This document shows positions 6,426-61,682 of a stretch of 64,000 nt of DNA, piece after piece. Position numbers and translations under genes: made by a program. This DNA comes from Candidatus Wirthbacteria bacterium (GTDB lineage Bacteria > Patescibacteriota > CG2-30-54-11). Below the pieces are notes generated by a model, which searched no databases, was not told where the DNA came from, and saw only the letters and a list, made by a program, of their open reading frames with translations. The stretch's first letter is position 1. Each line of letters begins with the position of its first letter. Location of the stretch: positions 148 through 64,147 of the forward strand of contig CAISZI010000040.1 of the NCBI GenBank assembly GCA_903889905.1, given 5' to 3'.

Positions 6426-9377
6426 ATGCAAACCCAAAATCAGCCTCAGCTAGCCTCGCAGCCCTCTCTGGAGCCACTTCTGGATGAAGAAGACGAACTG
6501 CAGCCTCTACCTGAAGTCTCTCCCGAAGCCATGCCTGAGGCTGCACCTCAACCCGAGCCTGAATCCCCAAAAAGTGAGGCGGTCCAAGCCTTTGACCAGG
6601 ATCAGGCGGCATTGGTGATGGAATTGATGAAAACAGGCCCCAAAGTTCTCGGTGCCTTCAAAATCGGCAACATGACCTACAAAATTGAAACGTACTATGA
6701 GGCATCCAAGGGAATCTGTTATCGCGTGGGAGCATTAGAGAAAAGCCAAGCAGCTGATGTGGCCGCCTTTATGTCAGAACGTGATTATGCTCACCTGGAT
6801 AAAGTCACGACGATTGAATTGATGCAATTTCCAATGCTGACCCAATTGATCGATCGCAGTGGTGGCGACAACAAAATTAATTTTTTTGTTCTTGATAAAC
6901 AGAAGTTCGCCGAACAGGAAGTGTTGCGTGGTATGGCGAATGCCAACACGGTCAGTATTCCACTCGAAGGGCAAGATAGTGGTGCGGAGATTTCCTACAT
7001 GGTAATGCGCGACGTTGCCAATGTCCGCCGTGCCTGGCTCGTGTTGTTTCCATTCAAAATTTCGAGCGGCGAAACGATAGTTGATAACAAGCAGCAATAT
7101 ACCGAAACAGTTGACAATGGAGACCGTGATTTGCATCGGTTTGTGGCGCAACAGCTTACTGAGCTAGTGCAAAAAGAACACGATAATCCCAAACAGGGTA
7201 AGAAATATACCAAGGCCATGCAAGCGTATTTGAGTAAGAGAAAAAACAGGCAACAATTTTTGCGTGAAGTGGCGCTGGAGTTACGTGGTCATGGCCATGG
7301 CGCGAGTAAAAAGGAAGAGTTGGATGTTCATCGTGAATACTTAAATCACGCATCCATGGATGAGCTCAAAGATATCTGCGGACTGATGTACACTGCCGCG
7401 ATACAGGACAAATCCATCAAGGCTTATGAAGACCGCGTCCGTACCCTGCAACAGCCAGAAATCCCTGTATCCGCGCCAGAAATGGCTGCGACAGGTTCAG
7501 GTGGTCTGGTGGATGCACTCAGATTGAAATTAATGAAACAAAGACTAGCCAAACCTTCGCCTGCGATTGACTCGACAGAGATAACACCTTTGCAACAGCA
7601 GCGTGCCGTTCAGAAGGAATCGTTAGCAAATTACGACAACTCCAGGGTGGTGGATGCAATGTCCGCTCAGCTTAGGTCAAAACCTGATCCAAAGCTAAAC
7701 GTTGTTCCGGATCTATTGGAAGCGTCAGCAGTGTTGTCGACTGAAGCAAGTGTTCAACCCATTACCGAGAGTAAGCAAGTTGGTGAAATGCAAGTCGATG
7801 CAGCGCCAGAAAAAGAACCGAAAACCATGACAGGGGCAGACACGGTCCAGGAACAAAGGTCATCAGCCGAACTGGAACACGATTTGGCGAAATTACTGAC
7901 TTCGGACAAAATTGAAAACATTGAATGGATCACTGATGTTATGACGAAACTGCTCAAATACCCCAACAAAGGCGTCGATCGTTCTCAACCACCCGATAGT
8001 CCGGAACAGTTGGCGGCCAAATTGCACTGTATCCAGCAGCATAACGCACAGGGCGAAGTTTCGTTGGCGCAGCTGGCGATAGACGCCGAGGAGTTTATCA
8101 AAAATAAAGTGGAGGGCCATGCATCTATGCCTTTTGCTTTGAAGTGGTATATCGATGAACGATATATGAAATTGTATGTCCTCGATTATCAACTGATGCG
8201 TGAGCGGGAGATTGCCAGTGAACCGCAATTTGAACAAGTTGACGATAAATTGTTACCGATCGACTACAAAAAAGATAGAAGTAAAACCCACAAAGAGCTA
8301 TTAAATTGGTGGGATGCAGATTGGATTAAAGAAATGGATGGTGCAGCTGTGTGGGCTAATTCATTATCTCAAAGAGTATCCTCAACGAGTCACAGTGAGG
8401 GTGAAACAAATTGGTTTATACAAAATGGCAGCAAAAGTGTATTTGAAGCAGATACACATAATAATTTGTTTATCTTAGATATGCAGAGTGAAGAATTTCT
8501 CAAAAATCTTCAGGATCATCAAGATTATCAACATGAGCAATCATTGGGTAAACAAATGACGGTCGAAGCTGTGCTCTGCGATTCTTGTAATGGCGCAATC
8601 CGTTTGAACTCCCGGTATTGTATGCTGGAAAAACCAAATGAGAATCAAGTGTTTCACTATTTTTTTATCATCAAAAAAGAGGATGGAAGCAACTGCGCGG
8701 CCAATGTCAGCTTGACGCTTGAGCACGGGAAGGTGGTATATAACAAAGTAAATAGTATGGGTGAGGGCTATATTGATCCTAGTAGAGTTGCAAATCCAGA
8801 ATTGTTTTTTACATCAGATGCTGCTTTGAGAGATTTAGATAGAGAGGATCTCAAAACACAAAAAGACGTTTTATTAACAAAACAAGAAATACAATTAATC
8901 GACAATGACAATAATTTAGACGCCACCCAACGTGAAGAACTAAGGCACAATTATTTGACTCGTGATACATCCAATCAGGTCTGCATCAAGGTGCAGGATT
9001 TGCTGTCGGAACATGGAGTGTCTGTCACCCGGCATAAATCAAAGAAAAAAGCTCAAACGCAGATGGCATTCAGTCATGCGGTGGGAAATCTAGGGGCAAG
9101 CTACCAGTTGGTGCCTGTGCGTGAGGACGAATCCATTGCAATTTTGGATCTCAAAGATGGCGAAACCAAGCCTTTTTATTTTGTCAAAGAATCCACCGGT
9201 GCGTCCAAGGACTTTGAAATCTTTACTGTCTGGCTCAACCGTGACGGCCCGATAGTCAGAGTGTGTGAAGGTCTGCAAGACCTGGATAACATGATGTTTG
9301 TCTTTGGCAAAAATAATGGCAAGATCTATACAAAAAATAGATTAAACAAAACTTTTTGGGACAGATTTAGCCGTTGA
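6426..9377 (+). CDS. Large orphan protein of 983 aa with no recognisable domain. It has an acidic, Pro-rich N-terminal ~60 aa, an internal CxxC...C element (CDSCNGAIRLNSRYC), and an AT-rich 3' third.
   Basis: Long uninterrupted ORF with its own AT-rich upstream region. No signal peptide or TM segment. The first ATG has no obvious SD. Confidence 0.6.
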   Translation: MQTQNQPQLASQPSLEPLLDEEDELQPLPEVSPEAMPEAAPQPEPESPKSEAVQAFDQDQAALVMELMKTGPKVLGAFKIGNMTYKIETYYEASKGICYRVGALEKSQAADVAAFMSERDYAHLDKVTTIELMQFPMLTQLIDRSGGDNKINFFVLDKQKFAEQEVLRGMANANTVSIPLEGQDSGAEISYMVMRDVANVRRAWLVLFPFKISSGETIVDNKQQYTETVDNGDRDLHRFVAQQLTELVQKEHDNPKQGKKYTKAMQAYLSKRKNRQQFLREVALELRGHGHGASKKEELDVHREYLNHASMDELKDICGLMYTAAIQDKSIKAYEDRVRTLQQPEIPVSAPEMAATGSGGLVDALRLKLMKQRLAKPSPAIDSTEITPLQQQRAVQKESLANYDNSRVVDAMSAQLRSKPDPKLNVVPDLLEASAVLSTEASVQPITESKQVGEMQVDAAPEKEPKTMTGADTVQEQRSSAELEHDLAKLLTSDKIENIEWITDVMTKLLKYPNKGVDRSQPPDSPEQLAAKLHCIQQHNAQGEVSLAQLAIDAEEFIKNKVEGHASMPFALKWYIDERYMKLYVLDYQLMREREIASEPQFEQVDDKLLPIDYKKDRSKTHKELLNWWDADWIKEMDGAAVWANSLSQRVSSTSHSEGETNWFIQNGSKSVFEADTHNNLFILDMQSEEFLKNLQDHQDYQHEQSLGKQMTVEAVLCDSCNGAIRLNSRYCMLEKPNENQVFHYFFIIKKEDGSNCAANVSLTLEHGKVVYNKVNSMGEGYIDPSRVANPELFFTSDAALRDLDREDLKTQKDVLLTKQEIQLIDNDNNLDATQREELRHNYLTRDTSNQVCIKVQDLLSEHGVSVTRHKSKKKAQTQMAFSHAVGNLGASYQLVPVREDESIAILDLKDGETKPFYFVKESTGASKDFEIFTVWLNRDGPIVRVCEGLQDLDNMMFVFGKNNGKIYTKNRLNKTFWDRFSR

Positions 9378-9659: not shown

Positions 9660-11018
9660 ATGAAGTCTGAAAAAGCGGTTCTTGTTCTCAAAGACGGGAC
9701 ACGATTTGAAGGGCGGGCGATAGGGAAGCGCGGCATTTCGGTCGGTGAAGTGGTGTTCAATACCTCGATGACCGGGTATCAGGAAATTCTGACTGATCCG
9801 TCGTATGCGGGGCAGATCATCACGTTCACCTATCCGCTGATCGGCAATTACGATACCAACTACGAAGATTTGGAGTCGCGTGGGGTGTTTTGTCGCGGTG
9901 CCATTGTCAAAGAGCTGGAAGATGAGGGAAACAGCTGGCGCGGAAAGCATAATCTGGAAGATTTCCTGATGCGGAATAACGTGATTGGGATTGCGGGAAT
10001 TGATACACGCAAATTAACACGGCATATCCGGAATTTTGGCGTTTTGAACGGCGCGATCGTCTCGGGACAGGAGCTGACGGATATTGTGGTGGCGGATGTC
10101 AAAGCCCGGATCGACGCCTTTACGGATCGTGAAATGATCCGTGAGGTGAGCTGCAAAGCTGTGTATCACTATGATGCGCCAACCGAACCATGGGTAACTT
10201 TTGAGCATTGGACGCGGGACAAGGCAAGACGGGATGCGGGAGGAGATGGTGAGTTGAAGGGGTTTTTTATGCCAAAAGCGCGGGGGAAAGGTGATGACCC
10301 AGCGGTCATTGCGAAGGAGTCTGCGACTGCGGCAAGCTTGCAGCATGAAATGAGAGCGGAGAGAGGCAGCACGATTGCCACGTCATCCCATCGGAATGGT
10401 ATTCCTTGCAATGACAGCGTAGATAAGGCACAAAACCATAGAAAGATTTTTCATTTGGTGGCTATGGATTTTGGTATCAAGACGAACATACTTCGTATGC
10501 TCTATAACGAAGGCTTTGACATTACCGTGGTGCCACAGGACACGAGTTTTGAAACCATTGTGGCTCTTCAACCGGATGGCATTTTCCTCTCCAATGGCCC
10601 GGGCGACCCCAAATCCATTCCGGATGCCATCAAAGTGATTGGTGAACTGATTCATTACTTTCCGACCATGGGCATATGCCTGGGGCATCAACTCTTGGCA
10701 CTGGCCACGGGAGGAGACACTTATAAGTTGAAGTTTGGGCACCGTGGCGGCAACCATCCGGTCAAAGATTTGAAGACAGGGCGTGTTTACATTACTTCAC
10801 AAAACCATGGTTATGCTGTGAATCAGGATTCACTGGTAGGGACTGGACTAAGGGTTACTTTAGTTAATCTCAACGACCAGACTGTCGAAGGCATGGATCA
10901 CGAAAACTTGCCGGTGTTTTCGGTACAGTATCATCCCGAGGCAAGCCCGGGGCCGCAGGATAACCATTATTTGTTTGGGAAGTTCAGGAAGCTGATTGAA
11001 AAGCCGAGGATGGGGTAA
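9660..11018 (+). CDS. carA: Carbamoyl-phosphate synthase small (glutaminase) subunit. Carries an ~80-aa low-complexity insertion between the N-terminal domain and the GATase domain.
   Basis: CarA N-domain plus class I GATase (GICLGHQLL catalytic Cys, HPE). The insertion WTRDKARRDAGGDGELKGFFMPKARGKGDDPAVIAKESATAASLQHEMRAERGSTIATSSHRNGIPCNDSVDKAQNHR makes the protein 452 aa instead of ~380. Confidence 0.9.
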   Translation: MKSEKAVLVLKDGTRFEGRAIGKRGISVGEVVFNTSMTGYQEILTDPSYAGQIITFTYPLIGNYDTNYEDLESRGVFCRGAIVKELEDEGNSWRGKHNLEDFLMRNNVIGIAGIDTRKLTRHIRNFGVLNGAIVSGQELTDIVVADVKARIDAFTDREMIREVSCKAVYHYDAPTEPWVTFEHWTRDKARRDAGGDGELKGFFMPKARGKGDDPAVIAKESATAASLQHEMRAERGSTIATSSHRNGIPCNDSVDKAQNHRKIFHLVAMDFGIKTNILRMLYNEGFDITVVPQDTSFETIVALQPDGIFLSNGPGDPKSIPDAIKVIGELIHYFPTMGICLGHQLLALATGGDTYKLKFGHRGGNHPVKDLKTGRVYITSQNHGYAVNQDSLVGTGLRVTLVNLNDQTVEGMDHENLPVFSVQYHPEASPGPQDNHYLFGKFRKLIEKPRMG

Positions 11019-20640: not shown

Positions 20641-20733
20641 GTCATTGCGAGGAGTCATCGACGCGGCAATCTTTCGGCTTTTGGGAGGAAAGATTGCCAC
20701 GTCACCCCGTCAGAACGGGATTCCTCGCAATGA
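20641..20733. repeat. MITE-like palindromic element, copy 2 (GTCATTGCGAGGA...GGCAATCTTTCGGCTTTTGGGAGGAAAGATTGCC...TTCCTCGCAATGAC)
   Basis: Same terminal and inner inverted-repeat structure as the copy at 2206. Confidence 0.7.
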
Positions 20734-20767
20734 CAGAATTAACTAATGACATCAACAGGAGAGTAAA

Positions 20768-23104
20768 ATGTTTCGTCAGAAAGTGATCATCATGGGCGCG
20801 GCGGGGCGAGATTTTCACAACTTCAACGTCTACTTCCGCGACAAGGAAGAATTTGAGGTTGTCGCTTTTACGGCGACGCAGATTCCCAATATTGACGGCC
20901 GCAAATACCCGGCCGAACTGGCGGGTACGCTTTACCCCGATGGCATCGATATTTACCGCGAAGAAGAGCTGTCGCAACTGATCAAACGTTTTGATGCCCG
21001 TACCGTCGTTTTTGCCTATTCGGATGTTAGCCATGAGTACGTCATGCATCGCGTTTCATTGGCCAATGCCGTGGGGGCCAATTTCCTGCTGCTCGGAGTG
21101 AGGGACACCATGATTAAGTCGATCAAACCCGTGATTTCGATCTGTGCCGTGCGCACCGGCAGTGGCAAAAGTCAGACATCGCGTGCGGTGGTTGGTTTTT
21201 TGAAGACGCAAGGCCTCAAGGTTGTGGCCGTGCGCCACCCTATGCCTTATGGCGACCTGGCCAAACAGGCGGTGCAGCGTTTTGCCACTTACGATGACTT
21301 TGCCAAACACGAGTGCACGTTTGAGGAGCGCGAAGAATATGAGCCCTACATTGAGCAGGGATTGGTGATTTATGCCGGTGTGGATTATGGTGCCATTCTG
21401 ACGCAAGCCGAAGCTGAGGCCGATGTGATTGTCTGGGATGGTGGCAACAACGACACACCTTTTTTCGTTCCGGACCTTAATATCGTTGTCGTCGACCCAC
21501 ACCGTCCGGGCCATGAGCTTAAGTATTATCCTGGCGAAACCAACCTGCGCATGGCCGACGTGATTGTGATCAACAAAATGGACAGCGCCCAGCCTGAGGG
21601 CATCGAAACCGTCAAAGCCAACATTGCCAAATACAACAGTCGCGCCCGGGTGATCGAAGCGGATTCGATTATCGACGTAGCTGATCCGACGCTGATTAAC
21701 AATATGCGCGTGCTCGCCATTGAAGATGGTCCAACCGTGACACACGGTGGTATGGGGTATGGTGCCGCCTACATTGCAGCGGAAAAGTTCAAAGCCTGGC
21801 AAATCGTCGATCCGCGGCCATTTGCGGTGGGTTCAATCAAGGCAACCTTTGCCAAATACAGCCACCTCGACAAAGTCCTGCCGGCCATGGGTTATGGCTC
21901 CGCGCAAATGCAGGAACTCGAGGACACGATCAACGCGAGCAATGCCGAAGCGGTTGTAATTGGTACTCCCGTGGATCTGGGCAAGCTGTTGCATATCAAT
22001 AAACCCTATACCCGCGTCACTTACCGTTTGGCGGAACGTGGCGACCTCAAACTTGCCGAGGTTTTACAACCGTTCATTCCTGCCACAACTATCCCAACTG
22101 TTCAAAGTCCCGCTTCAACCATCACCCCAAGGAGTGTCTCCATGCCAGCGACAAACCTTCCCCAGAACTCGGTTCGGCATTTACTCCATTTCAAAGATTA
22201 CACCGGCGCCGAACTGCGCGAGATCCTCGACCTGGCGCACAAAATCAAAGCCAGTCCCAAGGAATACTGGTTTGCTCTTGACCACCAGACGCTGGTCATG
22301 CTGTTTCAAAAGAATTCGACCCGCACCCGCGTCTCCTTTGAAACCGGGCTCACTCAGCTCGGCGGCCACGCCATTTTTCTGGATTGGAAAAATACCCAGC
22401 TGGACAAAGCGAGCCTTCCTGATGAAGCGCGCTGCCTGGCTCGCTATGGCAACATGATCGCCGCGCGGCTCAAAAAGCACAGCGACATCGAGCAGATTGC
22501 CGCCTATAGTCGCGTACCAGTGATCAACATGCTGTGCGAGAAATACCATCCCTGCCAGTCACTCGCCGATTTGCTCACCATCGAAGAACATTTGGGCAAA
22601 CTGGAAGGCAAGAATATTGTCTACACTGGCATTGCCAACAATGTCTCCAACACATTGGTTGACGCCGGCACCAAGCTTGGCGCCAATGTCATCCTGGCCG
22701 TACCCGAAAAAGACCCGGATGCCCTGGACCCCGAACTTGAAGCCGCTGCCATGGCCACTGGTCGCTATCACGAAACCACAGATTTGCTCGAAGTCATGCC
22801 CACAGCCGACGTCGTCTACACCGACACCTGGGTCAATATGGAGCATTTTGACGACCCCAAATTCGCCGCCGAGAAAGCCCGCCGCGAGAAGCTTTTCGCG
22901 CCCTACCAGGTGAGTGCCGCGCTGCTGGAGAAGACCGGAAGCCATGCCCTGATCATGCACGACCTCCCAGCCCACGATGGCTATGAAATCACTCGGGATG
23001 CCATTGAGCACCCCAATTCCATCATCTTCGACCAGGCCGAGAACCGGCTGCATGCCCAGAAGGCAGTCATGGTGTGGTTGCTGCAGAAGAATAAGATGGT
23101 ATAA
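20768..23104 (+). CDS. Fusion protein. The N-terminal ~440 aa are a COG2403-like P-loop NTPase (cyclic 2,3-diphosphoglycerate-synthetase-family 'predicted GTPase'; Walker A AVRTGSGKSQTS, Walker B IVWDGGNND). The C-terminal ~330 aa are an ornithine/putrescine carbamoyltransferase (STRTRVSFE, HPCQ, HDLPA).
   Basis: 778-aa uninterrupted ORF with an AGGAG RBS. OTC motifs are unambiguous. The N-terminal family assignment is by eye. Confidence 0.75.
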   Translation: MFRQKVIIMGAAGRDFHNFNVYFRDKEEFEVVAFTATQIPNIDGRKYPAELAGTLYPDGIDIYREEELSQLIKRFDARTVVFAYSDVSHEYVMHRVSLANAVGANFLLLGVRDTMIKSIKPVISICAVRTGSGKSQTSRAVVGFLKTQGLKVVAVRHPMPYGDLAKQAVQRFATYDDFAKHECTFEEREEYEPYIEQGLVIYAGVDYGAILTQAEAEADVIVWDGGNNDTPFFVPDLNIVVVDPHRPGHELKYYPGETNLRMADVIVINKMDSAQPEGIETVKANIAKYNSRARVIEADSIIDVADPTLINNMRVLAIEDGPTVTHGGMGYGAAYIAAEKFKAWQIVDPRPFAVGSIKATFAKYSHLDKVLPAMGYGSAQMQELEDTINASNAEAVVIGTPVDLGKLLHINKPYTRVTYRLAERGDLKLAEVLQPFIPATTIPTVQSPASTITPRSVSMPATNLPQNSVRHLLHFKDYTGAELREILDLAHKIKASPKEYWFALDHQTLVMLFQKNSTRTRVSFETGLTQLGGHAIFLDWKNTQLDKASLPDEARCLARYGNMIAARLKKHSDIEQIAAYSRVPVINMLCEKYHPCQSLADLLTIEEHLGKLEGKNIVYTGIANNVSNTLVDAGTKLGANVILAVPEKDPDALDPELEAAAMATGRYHETTDLLEVMPTADVVYTDTWVNMEHFDDPKFAAEKARREKLFAPYQVSAALLEKTGSHALIMHDLPAHDGYEITRDAIEHPNSIIFDQAENRLHAQKAVMVWLLQKNKMV
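23018..23104 (+). repeat. Direct repeat, copy 1: the true 3' end of the OTC-fusion gene
   Basis: About 90% identical to 23498-23585 over ~88 bp. The last 40 bp are identical. Confidence 0.8.
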
Positions 23105-23148
23105 TCAATTCTCACCTTGATATCTTATTTTTATAAGTCTGAGAATTT

Positions 23149-23490
23149 ATGTCGGAAATCGGCATTGGTGATTATGGTATTGCTGCCGATGGCGAGTACG
23201 ATCCGGCAGGCGAAATGCATGATTCGAGATCACCAGAAATATGTGTAGGGGAGTTACGATCTCTGAATGAAAGTATGCATAGTTTAGTAACGGAGTTACG
23301 TTATTTATATACGGAGATTGAAGCCTTGCGAGCGCAAGGAAATCTCAATAAACAAGATCAAAGAAAGTTAAAAAGACTCCAAAACGACGCACCAAGCACA
23401 TTAAATGTGCTGGAAAAGAAAAGGAAAAAATTTGCCACGCGACGCCAGTGGTATATTGATCATGATCCGAGTTATGCCGGCTTTAAGTAA
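23149..23490 (+). CDS. Hypothetical small coiled-coil protein of 113 aa in an AT-rich insert
   Basis: ORF between the two copies of the OTC 3'-end repeat. No family recognised. Confidence 0.4.
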   Translation: MSEIGIGDYGIAADGEYDPAGEMHDSRSPEICVGELRSLNESMHSLVTELRYLYTEIEALRAQGNLNKQDQRKLKRLQNDAPSTLNVLEKKRKKFATRRQWYIDHDPSYAGFK

Positions 23491-23497
23491 TCAAACT

Positions 23498-23585
23498 CCT
23501 TCATCTTCCACCAGGCCGAAAACCGCATGCATACTCAGAAGGCATTGCTGGTGTGGTTGCTGCAGAAGAATAAGATGGTATAATC
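23498..23585 (+). repeat. Direct repeat, copy 2: a relic, displaced copy of the OTC 3' end. Still encodes ...IFHQAENRMHTQKALLVWLLQKNKMV*.
   Basis: Alignment to 23018-23104 read directly. Confidence 0.8.
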
Positions 23586-23605
23586 TATAACCTCGCTGCA
23601 ATGCG

Positions 23606-23983
23606 GTGGAATCTATCTATTTTTATCGAGGTTGGAAAATGGCTAAATCGACTGTTGAATTAACTGCTGAGGGTAAATCCCAACAAGCGTTTTTGGATGA
23701 GATCAAACTCGATGAAAATAACGCACACGCAGACATTATAAAGGATATTGATGAATTGATTTTAGAAATTGATACAAAGGGTGAAGTCGAAGCCGATCGG
23801 TACTCAGCAGCTATTAAGAATTTTAATGATTTTTTTGATATTCGTTTGCCTCAAAACTTTGCTATTGATTATGTTCACATTCAAATTCTACTTGATTTAG
23901 TTGAAGCAGAATTGTCGCGCTTGAGTAAAACTGACAGTGAGCCGACTTTGGATCAGGTTGGCGGGCTTGAGGGGCAGGGGTAG
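23606..23983 (+). CDS. Hypothetical small acidic protein (likely start at MAKSTVEL, 23639)
   Basis: ORF in the AT-rich islet. No family recognised. Confidence 0.35.
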   Translation: MESIYFYRGWKMAKSTVELTAEGKSQQAFLDEIKLDENNAHADIIKDIDELILEIDTKGEVEADRYSAAIKNFNDFFDIRLPQNFAIDYVHIQILLDLVEAELSRLSKTDSEPTLDQVGGLEGQG

Positions 23984-24162
23984 TGAGGACGTCGCTGGCG
24001 GATCCAGATTTAGCCAAATAATCTGAAATTATTAACTCAATTTTCATGGAGGTGCAAACTGGACGAGATTGATGATAGTGGTTACCAAGGAGAGACAGAT
24101 CGACCGAATGCCTCTCTGACGGTGGTTCAAATTGCGGCAAAAGTATTAGCTGATCAGCAGCA

Positions 24163-24453
24163 ATGACTGCTCATCCTGTAGATTTAGGAGAATCTCCGGC
24201 ACTGGAGCAACAAGAGGACAAGAGCAATTCAATTTTGGCATTGCAGCAGAAAGAATTGGCAGCAAAGTATCAAGAGAATATTTTATTAGCTGAGTACAAT
24301 GCCCTAAAATCTAGACCATCCACTGCACTTGCAGATATTGATGCCGCCTTCGATCGTTTAGTTGCAGCATCCACGCGAGTAAATAATTTGGAGATAGACT
24401 TGCACAAATTATGCAAGGGGCCAGGCTCAGATGAAAATGGTTCATTTAGATAA
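24163..24453 (+). CDS. Hypothetical small coiled-coil protein of 96 aa
   Basis: ORF in the AT-rich islet. No family recognised. Confidence 0.35.
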   Translation: MTAHPVDLGESPALEQQEDKSNSILALQQKELAAKYQENILLAEYNALKSRPSTALADIDAAFDRLVAASTRVNNLEIDLHKLCKGPGSDENGSFR

Positions 24454-24713
24454 TCAAAAATGAACATATTGTAATTTCATCAAAGAATGCTGAATTGACT
24501 AGCTGAAGTGGGAATAAAACCTTGACCGCTCACATTATTTCTGTTAGTTTGTTGGCGGTCCGAAAATGATGTTTAATGCTTATTAACCATGCTCAAACTG
24601 ATTCGTCTTTGCCGTCGCATGAAGCCCGAACTCGAGCTGTGATTACTATTCCCCTTTACCATTGGTAACAGGGGATTTTTTTTGGCCATTTATCAACCAT
24701 TCTGGAGGGCAGT

Positions 24714-26033
24714 ATGCCTAACTTCGTCGGACGCGACATCATATCCATGGATGAATTCAGCCGCGAGGACATCATGTATGTCATGCGCGTGGCTGAGCTG
24801 ATGGAAAAAAACAAATATCCCGAGCTGCTCAAGGGCCTGATCGTGTCCACGTTGTTCTTCGAACCCTCTACTCGCACGCGCCTTTCCTTTGAGACCGCCG
24901 CGCTGCAGATCGGTGCCCAGGTCATTTCCACGACCGGCGCCCAGTTTTCGTCACTCTACAAAGGTGAAACGTTGCAGGATACTGCTGCGGTGATCGGTGG
25001 CTATGCCGATGTGCTGGTCATGCGCCACCCGGAAAAAGGTTCTGCCCGTGCGCTTGCCGATGGTACCGACAAACCCATCATTAATGGTGGTGACGGCCCC
25101 GGCGATCATCCAACTCAAACGCTTTTGGACCTTTATACCATCCTTTCAGCCAAAGGGACACTGGATAACCTCAAGATTGGCTTTGTCGGTGATCTCAAAT
25201 ACGGGCGTACCGTGCACTCACTGGCTACGGCACTGCGCTTTTTTAACCCCGAACTCTATTTCATCGCGCCCAAAGCACTCGCCATGCCCGACGAGTACAA
25301 GGAACGCCTCGACAATGCCGCAGTCAAATACCACGAGAGCGAAAATCTGGATGACTTTATCGGCGAGGTGGACATCCTGTATGTGACCCGTGTGCAGAAA
25401 GAACGCTTTACCGACGTCGAGGAATACAACAAGTACAAACTCATGTACATCATCGGTAATGACACCCTCAACAAAGCGCGCAAAGATGTTTCGATTATGC
25501 ATCCGCTACCACGGGTCGGCGAGATCAAGACCGAAATCGATAACTCCCCCAATGCCATTTACTTCCAGGAAGCCTGGAACGGCGTGCCGGTGCGCAAAGC
25601 CTTGCTCGCACTCGTCACTGGTCGCTTCAAACTCGAAGACCAGACGCAATCGGGTAAATTGGTCAAGAAAAATGTCCTGCTCACGATCGGTTCGGAAGAT
25701 AACAAGAAGAAAATGCTGCCCGACATTCAACAACTCGCCACAGTCGGTTACAACCTCTATGCCACCGCAAAAACACACAAATTCCTCAAGGAAATGGGCG
25801 TCGAAAATACCCAGCTGCACAAGATCAGCGATACCGGCAAGCAACCGAATATCAAAGACTTCCTGGAGCAAAAACGTTTTGACATCATCATCAATATCCC
25901 AAGTGGATTAGGCAGCGAAGAAGCTACGGACGGCAGCCTGATGCGCCGCATGGCCATTGAACAGAGCATTCCGCTGATTACCGACCCGCAGGTGGCGCAC
26001 TTCCTGATCGCGGCGTTGAAGAAGGAAGCGTAA
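24714..26033 (+). CDS. pyrB: Aspartate carbamoyltransferase catalytic chain fused to a C-terminal MGS-like (methylglyoxal-synthase-like) domain
   Basis: STRTRLSFE, HPTQ and HPLP motifs place it in ATCase. The ~115-aa C-terminal domain (KKNVLLTIGSEDNKKK...IINIPSG) resembles the CarB allosteric MGS domain. GGAGGG RBS. Confidence 0.85.
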   Translation: MPNFVGRDIISMDEFSREDIMYVMRVAELMEKNKYPELLKGLIVSTLFFEPSTRTRLSFETAALQIGAQVISTTGAQFSSLYKGETLQDTAAVIGGYADVLVMRHPEKGSARALADGTDKPIINGGDGPGDHPTQTLLDLYTILSAKGTLDNLKIGFVGDLKYGRTVHSLATALRFFNPELYFIAPKALAMPDEYKERLDNAAVKYHESENLDDFIGEVDILYVTRVQKERFTDVEEYNKYKLMYIIGNDTLNKARKDVSIMHPLPRVGEIKTEIDNSPNAIYFQEAWNGVPVRKALLALVTGRFKLEDQTQSGKLVKKNVLLTIGSEDNKKKMLPDIQQLATVGYNLYATAKTHKFLKEMGVENTQLHKISDTGKQPNIKDFLEQKRFDIIINIPSGLGSEEATDGSLMRRMAIEQSIPLITDPQVAHFLIAALKKEA

Positions 26034-30800: not shown

Positions 30801-30903
30801 GTCATCGAGAGGAGTCCTTCGTAAGGCTCAGGATAATCATCCTCGACGTGGCAACGCTTCATAAGTAACTAGATTGCCGCGGTCGAAGACTCCCTCGCAA
30901 TGA
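30801..30903. repeat. MITE-like palindromic element, copy 3 (left arm degenerate: GTCATCGAGAGGA; right half AACTAGATTGCCGCGGTCGAAGACTCCCTCGCAATGAC, near-identical to copy 1). Inserted between pyrD and pyrK.
   Basis: Read directly. Confidence 0.7.
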
Positions 30904-30930
30904 CAGCTAACCTCGAAAAAGGAAAAAATC

Positions 30931-31756: not shown

Positions 31757-31861
31757 GTCATTGCGAGTCCAGTCGGTGGGACGCGGCAATCTTTTGAAAA
31801 GAAGAAAAATTGCCCAGCTGTGCTGGACAAAGGCCGCAGTCGCTGACTTCTTCGCAATGAC
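31757..31861. repeat. MITE-like palindromic element, copy 4 (GTCATTGCGAG...GCGGCAATCTTTTGAAAAGAAGAAAAATTGCC...CTTCTTCGCAATGAC)
   Basis: Read directly. Lies between pyrK and prs. Confidence 0.7.
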
Positions 31862-31890
31862 AGTTTACAGTTTTATCTTCAGGAGATATT

Positions 31891-57340: not shown

Positions 57341-58384
57341 ATGTTTCAACCAATAAATCTCAAAACCCGTATTCCACTCGTGTTTAGTCTGTCAGTGCTG
57401 ATGCTGGCAGCGACAATGTTTGTTACGCAAGTGTTTGCCAGTGCCAGTGTTCAATTCATTACACCTGCCTCTGGCTCCACGCTCAATGGTAAGACACAAA
57501 TTGAGGTAGCCTCGGCCGACGCCAGTTCAGTGTCCATTTATCTGACCCGGTCTGGCACCAGCAGTAATACGTTGCTCGGTCAAGCCCGTCGCGGCTCATC
57601 CGGCAACTGGATCCTGGAATGGGATATGAGTGCTGTTGCATCGGGTGAGGTCGAATTACAGGCCAAAGCACTAGATAGCCATAATAACGTTTTGCCTTCG
57701 GCTAGCGTCAATGTCAGCGTCATTGGTTTACCCAAAACAACGCCAGTTTCCGCACCGGTAACAAAACCCACCCCACCCGCACCAGTCACAGCAGCCATAA
57801 TTCCTTCAATCCCGTTGACGTTGAACCATACGAATTCATTGCAAGCCATTGCTTCCCCAGTATTGCACCAGATCACGCTTGCCCAAAGTTCTATCCCCAA
57901 TGCGGCAGCGTTACAATCCGTGCCGGTCAGCGATCATTTGTATCCCACGGGATTATCGATTGGACGTTTTGCACCGAGCGGTGGCGTCACAAGTTGGGAT
58001 TATGAAACAGCTATTGCGGGCCACGGACCAGCCAATGCCAAAGTCGAGCTGCATGTCTATAGTGAACCCATTGTTGTCAGCACAACGACCAATGCGCAGG
58101 GCGATTTCGTCTATCATTTTGATCAAAGCCTGCCTGCAGGTGATCATGAAATATATATTGCCGTTGCAGATTCTGCCGGACAATCAACAGAACGCAGCAA
58201 TATCTTTACTTTTGTTGTGGGTGCGGCGGTGGCTTCAGATTATCCCACCACAGCGCTCAATGCCGTGACCGACAATGATCAGATGCTGCTCTGGAATTAT
58301 GTTGCGGTGACGCTGGGGATAATTGCCGTCGTGGGTATTGGTTTCCTGCTTGCCAAGAAGTTACTGTTTAAATCTCCCAAATAA
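57341..58384 (+). CDS. Secreted/surface protein: signal peptide, two Ig-like (Big) beta domains separated by a Pro/Thr linker, C-terminal TM anchor
   Basis: N-terminal signal sequence (LVFSLSVLMLAATMFVTQVFA), PTPPAPV linker and a C-terminal hydrophobic helix followed by KKLLFKSPK. Confidence 0.5.
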   Translation: MFQPINLKTRIPLVFSLSVLMLAATMFVTQVFASASVQFITPASGSTLNGKTQIEVASADASSVSIYLTRSGTSSNTLLGQARRGSSGNWILEWDMSAVASGEVELQAKALDSHNNVLPSASVNVSVIGLPKTTPVSAPVTKPTPPAPVTAAIIPSIPLTLNHTNSLQAIASPVLHQITLAQSSIPNAAALQSVPVSDHLYPTGLSIGRFAPSGGVTSWDYETAIAGHGPANAKVELHVYSEPIVVSTTTNAQGDFVYHFDQSLPAGDHEIYIAVADSAGQSTERSNIFTFVVGAAVASDYPTTALNAVTDNDQMLLWNYVAVTLGIIAVVGIGFLLAKKLLFKSPK

Positions 58385-60259: not shown

Positions 60260-60509
60260 GCTTGACCATACCTTAAACGAGGCTTAAAATTAATACCTGA
60301 ACTCATCAGGCGAAAAAAGCTGATTTCACCCTAATACCAAAACCCGTTTCCGCAGGTTAGCCCTCAAAAAGCAAAAACAGAAATGTTTAAACCATGGAAA
60401 CGGATTTTTTTATGAGGGAAAATCATTAAGTATATTGTTCGACAAGCAAGTAAAGTAACTAGACGTCACATTTAATAATACAAGGAGTGACGAGAAAATA
60501 TTGAGCGTA

Positions 60510-60659
60510 ATGGTGACATCGCGCAAGCCACGGTTTGTTTACACAGGCAAAGGTGACTACGCCGCCACGTCGCGGGCGTCGTTTAAGAGGGTGAAGGCAC
60601 AGGCGATAGAGGATGTGCGGTGGCGGATTGAGGAGATGGAGAAAAGAGTTAATTCGTAA
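60510..60659 (+). CDS. 49-aa ORF duplicating the C-terminal tail of the downstream 340-aa protein (MVTSRKPRFVYTGKGDYAATSRASFKRVKAQAIEDVRWRIEEMEKRVNS)
   Basis: About 88% nucleotide identity to 61555-61682. An AAGGAG lies ~25 nt upstream. Confidence 0.3.
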   Translation: MVTSRKPRFVYTGKGDYAATSRASFKRVKAQAIEDVRWRIEEMEKRVNS

Positions 60660-60671
60660 TTGGAGTTTGAC

Positions 60672-61682
60672 ATGGTTGAAATTTCCAAAGAAATAATGGC
60701 AGATGCTGTCAGAATATTGAACTTCCTCGAAAACCCGGCTTACTTTTGCGACAAAAGGACACACCTGTTGATGGGAAATGAGTTGATGCTGAAAATGTTT
60801 GGATTAAATGAAAAAATGGCCAGTCACATTCTTGGTAAAAACTGGATTGACGTACTTTTGGATCAGAATTTCGGTGTTCGATCGATAATCCCGCCAGCTG
60901 AGTGGGAAAAATTAGCTTTGCAACAATTGGTCAAAATTCGTCAGCTTTACCCCAAAGAAAGCATTCTCGAATTTGAACGAGAAATGTCAAAATATCAAGA
61001 GTTTGATTACTTGTGGCAAAAGAGTAAAGAGTTGGTTTCGGCAAACCCAATTTTTGAACGTGGCGTGATGAAGTTTGATTTGGCTGGATCTACCAAAACA
61101 TTTATCCTCTTGGCTTATCATTATCCAACTCAGGATTATTTGATTGTAGAGTATTTGCCGGCAGATAAGGGCACAACCGATTTCTTGGATTTGATGAGAA
61201 AAGAAAGAGAACCAACAGAAATTTCAGATCATTTTGTTACAGAAATGATACGAAATTACAGTTTGATCAGGAAGTTGAGGGAATCACCGATAATCCTGAT
61301 GAATTGTGTTAAAAAAGAAGCGGACTGTTCAGGCAATGACTTGATTAATGCTCTACGAACTATAGTGGACAAGGTCATTGGCGGTTTTGAACCCAATACC
61401 AATTTTTCAATTCGATCATCTGTTCGTCTCAAATACGAAATCCTCCGCATGATGGCCTACGAAGGTGCCACCGACGAGCAGATCATGTGGGACCTGGGCT
61501 TCGAGCCTGACAGCGACTTCTGGGCCAAGCGCAATGGCGACATTGCGCGCAAACCACGGTTCCCCTACACGGGCAAAGGCGATTACGCTGCCACGTCACG
61601 GGCGTCGTTTAAGAGGTTGAAGGCTCAGGCGATTGAGGATGTGAGGTGGCGGATCGAGGAGATGGAGAAAAGAACTAATTAA
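60672..61682 (+). CDS. Hypothetical protein with a possible C-terminal LuxR/GerE-type HTH (LKYEILRMMAYEGATDEQIMWDLGF). The N-terminal region has no family assignment. Located in an AT-rich block.
   Basis: ORF present. HTH guess by eye. The C-terminal 44 aa are repeated upstream. Confidence 0.45.
   Translation: MVEISKEIMADAVRILNFLENPAYFCDKRTHLLMGNELMLKMFGLNEKMASHILGKNWIDVLLDQNFGVRSIIPPAEWEKLALQQLVKIRQLYPKESILEFEREMSKYQEFDYLWQKSKELVSANPIFERGVMKFDLAGSTKTFILLAYHYPTQDYLIVEYLPADKGTTDFLDLMRKEREPTEISDHFVTEMIRNYSLIRKLRESPIILMNCVKKEADCSGNDLINALRTIVDKVIGGFEPNTNFSIRSSVRLKYEILRMMAYEGATDEQIMWDLGFEPDSDFWAKRNGDIARKPRFPYTGKGDYAATSRASFKRLKAQAIEDVRWRIEEMEKRTN

Follow-up and report, generated by a model that had tools for sequence, protein, structure and literature searches.

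A duplicated gene tail around a small orphan gene behind an ornithine carbamoyltransferase fusion gene of Candidatus Wirthbacteria: a possible recombinase-less integration scar

In the window analysed here, the whole 64,000-nt stretch taken from a metagenome-assembled contig of a Candidatus Wirthbacteria bacterium (CAISZI010000040.1), the 3' end of an ornithine carbamoyltransferase (OTC) fusion gene is present twice. The two copies, hereafter copy A (the gene's own end) and copy B, enclose a single small open reading frame, ORF1, and two further ones, ORF2 and ORF3, follow copy B in an AT-rich islet (Table 1). With moderate confidence, we read the locus as a scar resembling a cis-mobilizable element (CIME) that lacks a recombinase: about 480 bp of foreign DNA, consisting of ORF1 and a 55-nt relic of a foreign OTC tail, would have been placed behind the OTC-fusion gene by a crossover in a 37-nt core. 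The original prediction for this locus was a scar of site-specific integration. The duplicated tail around foreign-looking DNA and the intact gene agree with it, and its site-specificity finds no backing in a recombinase, an empty site or a second cassette.

A repeat search of the window returned a direct repeat of 106 nt (23004-23109 and 23483-23588, 84% identity, spacing 479). Codon-by-codon alignment narrowed the true homology to 92 nt at an offset of 479, namely 23015-23106 and 23494-23585. The duplication of the OTC-fusion 3' end is hence as predicted, with the second copy starting at 23494-23497 rather than at 23498. The first 55 nt of the repeat, termed the arm, contain 11 mismatches and form the diverged upstream part of the prediction; the last 37 nt, termed the core, contain none. 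The perfect match at the 3' end thereby holds, at a length of 37 nt and not of 40 bp. The core comprises the last ten sense codons (VWLLQKNKMV), the stop codon TAA and two further nucleotides. Mismatches are distributed unevenly between the two parts (11/55 in the arm vs 0/37 in the core, Fisher p = 0.0026). Identity jumps from 80% to 100% at 23069|23070, and a run of 37 matches at 20% divergence has a probability of 2.6e-4. Copy B also retains the legible coding tail that had been noticed; it reads NSFIFHQAENRMHTQKALLVWLLQKNKMV followed by a stop codon. ORF1 shares its reading frame with copy B, passing through TAA TCA AAC into the tail. The 37-mer is present in exactly two copies in the window (0 expected), both at this locus. 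A second instance of the cassette was not found.

The order tail A-ORF1-tail B is not an assembly artefact, since its junctions are reproduced in two independent metagenome assemblies from ENA (ERZ27313102 and ERZ27313079; k = 141). Contig L001 of one assembly reads core-ORF1-arm B-core-ORF2, and contig L002 of the other reads tail A-ORF1-arm B (window positions 23018-23515), both at 100% identity to the window. L001 starts exactly where the core does, at 23070. L002 opens with 10 nt, CGGGGAGAAC, that stand in place of GCACCCCAAT (23008-23017) and match nowhere else in the window; in the OTC frame they read GEN-S, a plausible OTC variant. These 10 nt at a contig end weakly hint at different OTC alleles with an identical tail A and ORF1.

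The islet stands out by its composition. The GC content is 0.36-0.44 in 23050-24700 and 0.51-0.58 on both flanks, and within the islet, which extends from 23107 to about 24457, the GC content at third codon positions (GC3) is 0.34-0.37 compared to 0.58 in the surrounding genes. The ORF1 insert itself has a GC content of 0.42 and a GC3 of 0.37 (host GC3, 0.58). The AT-richness claimed for 23105-24700 is therefore present, with the qualification that the rightmost ~200 nt (about 24494-24713) look like a native pyrB leader. All three predicted plus-strand ORFs of 113, 125 and 96 aa exist, ORF2 measuring 114 aa from an ATG that is preceded 7 nt upstream by a GAGG Shine-Dalgarno sequence. In none of 2000 shuffles of the islet was the third-longest stop-free run as long as the observed one, and for each of the three ORFs the annotated frame had the best codon likelihood. 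Judged by these statistics, ORF1, ORF2 and ORF3 are probably real genes of foreign composition. They had been described as acidic ORFs lying together between the repeats. The acidity applies to ORF2 (pI 4.2) and ORF3 (pI 4.9) and not to ORF1 (pI 6.3), and only ORF1 lies between the copies.

The predicted orphan status is upheld for ORF1, which has no homologue among 1.84 billion representative proteins, and for ORF2, for which a word-based search of a 5.8-billion-cluster protein collection as well as searches of phages and the PDB gave no relative. ORF3 had no match in family, phage, plasmid or PDB libraries, the large protein collections not being covered in its case. None of the three rose above noise in Pfam, PHROGs, PADLOC or NCBIfam. 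A PDB sequence search with ORF2 and ORF3 yielded nothing beyond a single chance match (E = 0.86), and exact look-ups of the OTC, pyrB, ORF2 and ORF3 sequences and of a 52-aa ORF described below were without match. In the AlphaFold2 model of ORF1 (mean predicted local distance difference test score, pLDDT, 79), an acidic and disordered N-terminal stretch precedes a hairpin of two antiparallel helices (29-62 and 68-105), for which Foldseek retrieved only generic coiled coils (E >= 0.5); the model of ORF2 contains three predicted helices at low confidence (pLDDT 64). An origin of the ORFs from phages, defence systems or plasmids was rejected (no PHROG, PADLOC, phage or plasmid match), as was a paralogous relationship among ORF1, ORF2 and ORF3, which share no similarity. 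A 36-codon mini-ORF coupled to ORF3 was rejected for want of a start codon.

The arm of copy B does not resemble a simple decay product of the resident tail. The two arms differ by 5 synonymous and 6 non-synonymous nucleotide changes, a ratio indistinguishable from neutrality (P = 0.11). Of the six residue changes, four (L>M, A>T, V>L and M>L) convert AENRLHAQKAVM to AENRMHTQKALL, and this 12-residue string was retrieved in exact form from at least 120 natural OTC genes by a degenerate DNA pattern in JGI metagenomes. Residue frequencies were taken from 118 tails, those that most resemble the resident OTC. Counted from the left, the first two of the four natural-type positions favour the resident residues (L 90% vs M 8%; A 79% vs T 3%), and the residues of arm B are frequent at the remaining two (V 53% vs L 22%; M 47% vs L 47%). 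The F and the H of arm B occur in 0 of the 118 natural tails, the H replacing an aspartate conserved at 93%, which points to later decay. Arm B shares 80% of its nucleotides with arm A and 78-80% with unrelated OTC genes of the RMHT type (L206, L111 and L146). The closest orthologue of the resident gene (P0002, 67% identical over the full length and with the same GTPase::OTC fusion) is nearer to arm A (85%) than to arm B (73%). In blastn, arm B also matched argF of a Pseudorhizobium plasmid, and its motif RMHTQKALL is one that other OTC clades typically carry. The resident ending, QKNKMV followed by the stop, was absent from all natural OTC tails retrieved. The RMHT-type OTC loci that were recovered reach at most 67% identity to copy B over 92 nt and show no likeness beyond the conserved motif.

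Arm B is best read from these comparisons as an OTC-tail fragment of another lineage that has since gained two disabling changes. Copy B would then be a chimera, because an arm of foreign type precedes the ending QKNKMV-stop of the resident gene itself; the joint would lie at 23548|23549, and the 55 nt of the arm provide modest evidence for it. The downstream copy is consequently unlikely to be the displaced native 3' end of the gene that had been proposed, given an arm of foreign appearance and the greater closeness of arm A to P0002. A possible extension of copy B upstream into the 3' end of ORF1, suggested by a tblastn alignment, was not significant (P = 0.115).

Both cores contain a perfect extended -10 element, TGGTATAAT (23097-23105 and 23576-23584). 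The OTC stop codon falls within the TATAAT of this element, and the identity block ends one base past the -10 hexamer. A -35-like TTGCTG is located at 23078-23083, with a 16-nt spacer. The motif TGNTATAAT has 8 occurrences in the window compared to ~2 expected. The extended -10 of the core recurs as GATGGTATAAT 39 nt upstream of the gene at 6426-9377, and TGTTATAAT is located 49 nt upstream of the gene at 57341. The first of these genes is a 983-aa ORF without Pfam match in a region whose GC content dips to 0.40 (8-9 kb). ORF1 starts 43 nt and ORF2 54 nt after its own core, and the two leaders share TATCT(T)ATTTTTAT (P = 0.01). On this basis, each core copy is probably the promoter of the small gene that follows, copy A serving ORF1 and copy B serving ORF2-ORF3.

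We infer the crossover, its position and the direction of arrival as follows. The incoming (circular) DNA would have carried ORF1, arm B and the 37-nt block, and a single reciprocal crossover of the Campbell type would have taken place within this block or at its edge. Such an event would leave the OTC reading frame untouched, and the gene-proximal copy would keep its native arm (attL-like). The block would be duplicated, the distal copy behind the insert (attR-like) receiving the element-borne arm B, and the unit between the crossover points would measure 479 bp. The core copies may then drive ORF1 (copy A) and ORF2-ORF3 (copy B), a promoter role that would help to keep copy B intact. ORF2 and ORF3, equally AT-rich and located outside the repeats, would most simply be earlier arrivals at the same spot. 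The unit would be non-autonomous, because no recombinase is encoded nearby. A recombinase may have acted in trans or be encoded elsewhere, or host homologous recombination may have used the 37-nt identity, which exceeds the ~25-nt minimal processing segment of E. coli. The scheme predicts an ORF1-free junction in which arm A and the core are followed by TATAACCTCG and ORF2, that is ...GGCAGTCA + 37-nt core + TATAACCTCGCTG..., and a circle or tandem junction of the form ...GGCATTGC + core + AATTCTCACCTTG...

Several observations weigh against this scheme. The 37-nt identity could equally stem from a site-specific or RecA-type crossover, from gene conversion or from promoter selection, the latter two accounting for it without any crossover. 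The argument for a foreign arm B rests on 55 nt, in which 85% and 80% identity are only 3 nt apart. No integrase, resolvase or transposase was present among the scanned ORFs of at least 150 aa in 1-45 kb, and the original prediction had already remarked that no integrase is visible; all of these ORFs are housekeeping genes or without family match. The repeat search likewise found no inverted repeats at the ends of the ORF1 unit, and to our knowledge a unit of 479 bp is far smaller than any integrative element. An empty site was not found either: a scan of GTDB representatives gave nothing closer than ~65%, the tail sequence had 0 matches in JGI metagenomes, and a search with the C-terminal fragment returned no near-identical OTC variants. 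At the P0002 locus, which is not syntenic, an aminotransferase-like gene lies 51 nt downstream of a different tail. Nor did these searches bring up an old, conserved locus with small ORFs of housekeeping type, which was the refuting condition given with the original prediction. The cargo ORF1 is unique to this organism, so that there is no evidence that the unit has ever moved. Lastly, a crossover leaves unexplained the heptamer TAATCAA at the stop codons of OTC, ORF1 and ORF3.

This heptamer occurs five times on the plus strand of the window, and three of the five occurrences coincide with the stops of OTC (23102), ORF1 (23488) and ORF3 (24451), thereby bracketing both the ORF1 unit and the entire islet. 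Its counterpart in copy B is TAATCTA. Such a pattern would be in keeping with microhomology joints or with a short core site; joints at TAATCAA would give an islet-free site of the form ...GGTATAATCAA + AAATGAACATATTG...

A second duplicated gene tail is present elsewhere in the window, at 60520-60654 and 61546-61680 (135 nt, 87% identity, spacing 1026). One copy belongs to a stand-alone basic ORF of 52 aa (60501-60659) and the other forms the C-terminus of the adjacent 340-aa ORF (60660-61682). Of the codon differences between them, 11 are synonymous and 3 non-synonymous, which indicates purifying selection on both. The GC content across 60501-61682 is a mosaic (0.36 / 0.54 / 0.38 / 0.57), an AT-rich body being fused in frame to a tail of normal GC content. 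Neither ORF had a significant family match.

Among the alternatives, the one that survives best, unlikely as we consider it, is that a piece of chromosome from the OTC locus of another bacterium was inserted, either illegitimately or with the help of homology, with no mobile element involved. Arm B, the tail end and ORF2-ORF3 would have come as one fragment behind a resident OTC-ORF1 pair, or ORF1 would have arrived in this manner, and gene conversion would later have homogenised the last 37 nt. The main support for such an insertion is the 7-nt TAATCAA, which brackets the ORF1 unit and the islet in the manner of microhomology joints. A genuine OTC tail of another lineage in arm B, the lack of a recombinase nearby and the similar foreign composition of ORF1, ORF2 and ORF3 would fit as well. 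This reading requires, however, an additional ad hoc conversion tract that ends precisely two nucleotides past the stop, and no donor locus with OTC and ORF2 is visible, ORF2 having no homologue in the databases searched and ORF3 no match in the libraries searched. The recovered RMHT-type loci, furthermore, resemble copy B only in the conserved motif.

A local tandem duplication of a native ~480-bp unit of tail, promoter and small gene, followed by long divergence, appears distinctly improbable. The ORFs would be lineage-specific, and copy B would have been kept as the promoter of ORF2. The regular period, with ORF1 and ORF2 starting at similar distances past their cores, the common leader motif, the end of the identical block one base after the -10 element and the existence of the second duplicated tail at 60.5-61.7 kb, both copies of which are under selection, all agree with a duplication. 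Against it, ORF1 and ORF2 are dissimilar (blastp E = 4.4; unit bodies P = 0.29), the changes in arm B match a common natural OTC motif instead of random decay, and the GC3 of the islet is far from that of the genome.

An integrase-bearing prophage, integrative and conjugative element (ICE) or integrative and mobilizable element (IME) that integrated site-specifically at the OTC 3' end, displaced the gene's own tail and decayed to three ORFs is very unlikely, even though the tail is duplicated with an identical core around AT-rich DNA and e14 at icd offers a precedent. ORF2 and ORF3 lie outside the repeat pair, and the displaced copy looks unlike the tail of this gene. No third, decayed copy of the tail was detected in the ORF2-ORF3 interval or downstream of ORF3 in local alignments against shuffles (P = 0.19-0.75), and none of the ORFs gave a PHROG or PADLOC signal.

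As a long shot, the 37-nt block might be the heart of a minimal cassette-stacking system, in which gene end, crossover site and promoter coincide and orphan genes are added serially with no local recombinase. Hints in this direction would be TAATCAA at the cassette ends (23102, 23488 and 24451), contig ends or divergence points of independent assemblies exactly at the repeat boundaries 23018 and 23070, and the second GC-mosaic arrangement of tail, AT-rich ORF and tail at 60.5-61.7 kb. If the idea were true, these hints together would point to a process acting across the genome of this uncultivated lineage. A mis-join of two strain haplotypes at the shared 37-mer, compatible with the metagenome-assembled source and with the start of L001 at the first base of the core, has a next to negligible probability, given that the junction of ORF1 and arm B offers no shared k-mer for a mis-join and that L001 and L002 cross the junctions at 100% identity. 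A diversity-generating retroelement was also considered and rejected: mismatches fall on A at only 3 of 11 positions with copy B as template repeat, or 2 of 11 with copy A, and neither ORF1-3 nor their neighbours have a reverse transcriptase or Avd family match.

The OTC part of the target gene matches the Pfam families OTCace_N and OTCace and exceeds the cut-offs of the NCBIfam OTC models. In many other genomes, matches to the GTPase and OTC halves adjoin, apparently as neighbouring genes. The islet is set in a housekeeping arginine/pyrimidine cluster. The genes before it are, in order, carA, carB, a serB::serA fusion, serC, two unknown genes, a carbamate kinase gene and the fusion of OTC with a GTPase resembling cyclic-2,3-diphosphoglycerate synthetase. 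It is followed by pyrB::MGS (24714-26033), pyrF, pyrC and a pyrE-like gene. The first of the following genes is itself an unusual fusion, of aspartate carbamoyltransferase with an MGS-like domain. The window contains no tRNA or tmRNA gene, and Rfam gave no family match even at a permissive threshold across the islet; a known RNA family or tRNA as integration target was thereby ruled out.

The stretch from about 24494 to 24713 is probably a native attenuator-type pyrB leader and not cargo, which puts the islet's right boundary near 24457. Its 17-codon ORF (24589-24642) encodes MLKLIRLCRRMKPELEL. A hairpin at 24650-24675, present in both the minimum free energy and the centroid folds, is followed by T8 at 24676-24683. 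Since this strong hairpin and T8 end only 30 nt before the pyrB ATG, pyrB must be transcribed through the leader terminator. The leader had no Rfam match, for example to a PyrR site.

The window holds other repeats as well. Intergenic sequences of ~45 nt that end in ...TCGCAATGACAG and resemble repetitive extragenic palindromes or miniature inverted-repeat transposable elements occur in both orientations at 2270-2311, 10282-10338, 10373-10417, 20692-20736, 30867-30908 and 31824-31865; one of them lies shortly before the OTC-fusion gene. G-rich repeats (CCCC..GGGG..GAGAGGGGAA) are located at 2326, 3456 and 26097.

Table 1 Features of the OTC-fusion locus and the adjoining islet (positions within the window)
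Feature	Position	Strand	Description
OTC-fusion gene	20768..23104	+	Intact; cyclic-2,3-diphosphoglycerate-synthetase-like GTPase domain (N-terminal ~440 aa) and ornithine carbamoyltransferase (residues ~467-774)
Arm A	23015..23069	+	Resident OTC tail, encodes NSIIFDQAENRLHAQKAVM, GC 0.56; 85% identical to the P0002 stretch
Core A	23070..23106	+	Identical to 23549-23585; VWLLQKNKMV, stop TAA 23102-23104, 2 nt
ORF1	23149..23490	+	113 aa, pI 6.3; sole gene between the repeat copies; ORFan
Arm B	23494..23548	+	Putative 55-nt OTC-tail relic, encodes NSFIFHQAENRMHTQKALL; truncated, non-functional
Core B	23549..23585	+	Second 37-nt copy; extended -10 at 23576-23584; 54 nt upstream of the ORF2 ATG
ORF2	23639..23983	+	114 aa (125 aa from GTG 23606), pI 4.2; outside the repeat pair; ORFan
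ORF3	24163..24453	+	96 aa, acidic, pI 4.9; outside the repeat pair; stop within TAATCAA 24451-24457
Probable native pyrB leader	24521..24713	+	Sigma70-like TTGACC-17-TAGTTT, 17-codon ORF, hairpin + T8

If the preferred reading of a CIME-like scar is true, the locus is a very small example of orphan genes slotted behind an essential metabolic gene without damage to it, in which newcomers would be expressed at once from a promoter concealed within the gene's final codons. It would then be of use for studying how islets of ORFans arise and become fixed in uncultivated bacteria.

Features of several known systems recur here. Like phage morons, the islet consists of compositionally deviant small ORFs with putative promoters of their own between unrelated genes. 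Unlike morons, it is placed in a housekeeping arginine/pyrimidine cluster, without a terminator after each ORF and without PHROG match. Integron cassettes are similar in being small single-ORF units in one orientation behind a fixed point, and a short conserved sequence, TAATCAA, marks the insertion point here as well as the ends of ORF1 and ORF3. In contrast to integrons, no IntI, attI or attC-type imperfect palindromes are present (no integrase in 1-45 kb and no significant inverted repeats in 23100-24700), and the repeated element is a gene tail with a promoter, whereas integron cassettes are usually promoterless.

Element e14 of E. coli is a multi-kb element of about 15 kb with its own integrase. 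Integration of e14 or phage 21 at icd of E. coli duplicates the 3' end of a protein gene (163 bp, pseudo-icd'), an element-borne tail being fused to the gene and the host tail displaced (PMC6379469). As at icd, the gene 3' end in our case is present twice around an insert (163 bp there, 92 nt here), the copies differ by substitutions, and the gene is functional there and intact here; the insert is flanked by direct repeats, one of which completes the target gene. The 479-bp unit differs from e14 in holding a single orphan gene, ORF1, and no tyrosine or serine recombinase next to an att-like site. The gene-attached copy, moreover, looks native here and the downstream copy carries a foreign arm, so that, on the modest evidence of its 55 nt, the latter does not appear to be the host's own displaced tail.

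CIMEs are defined as remnants that have flanking att sites and lack recombination genes; they often occur in stacks with other decayed elements at one gene end (PMC5704250). They can be recognised as derivatives of known ICE or IME families, a cognate integrase being present in related elements, whereas the cargo described here resembles no known element and has no known cognate recombinase. The locus nonetheless has the properties of the definition, namely flanking repeats with no recombinase, integration or transfer gene found and further foreign DNA stacked at the same target (PMC5704250). No new mechanism is revealed; the OTC-fusion locus would represent an event of a known kind, on a small scale and with no recombinase.

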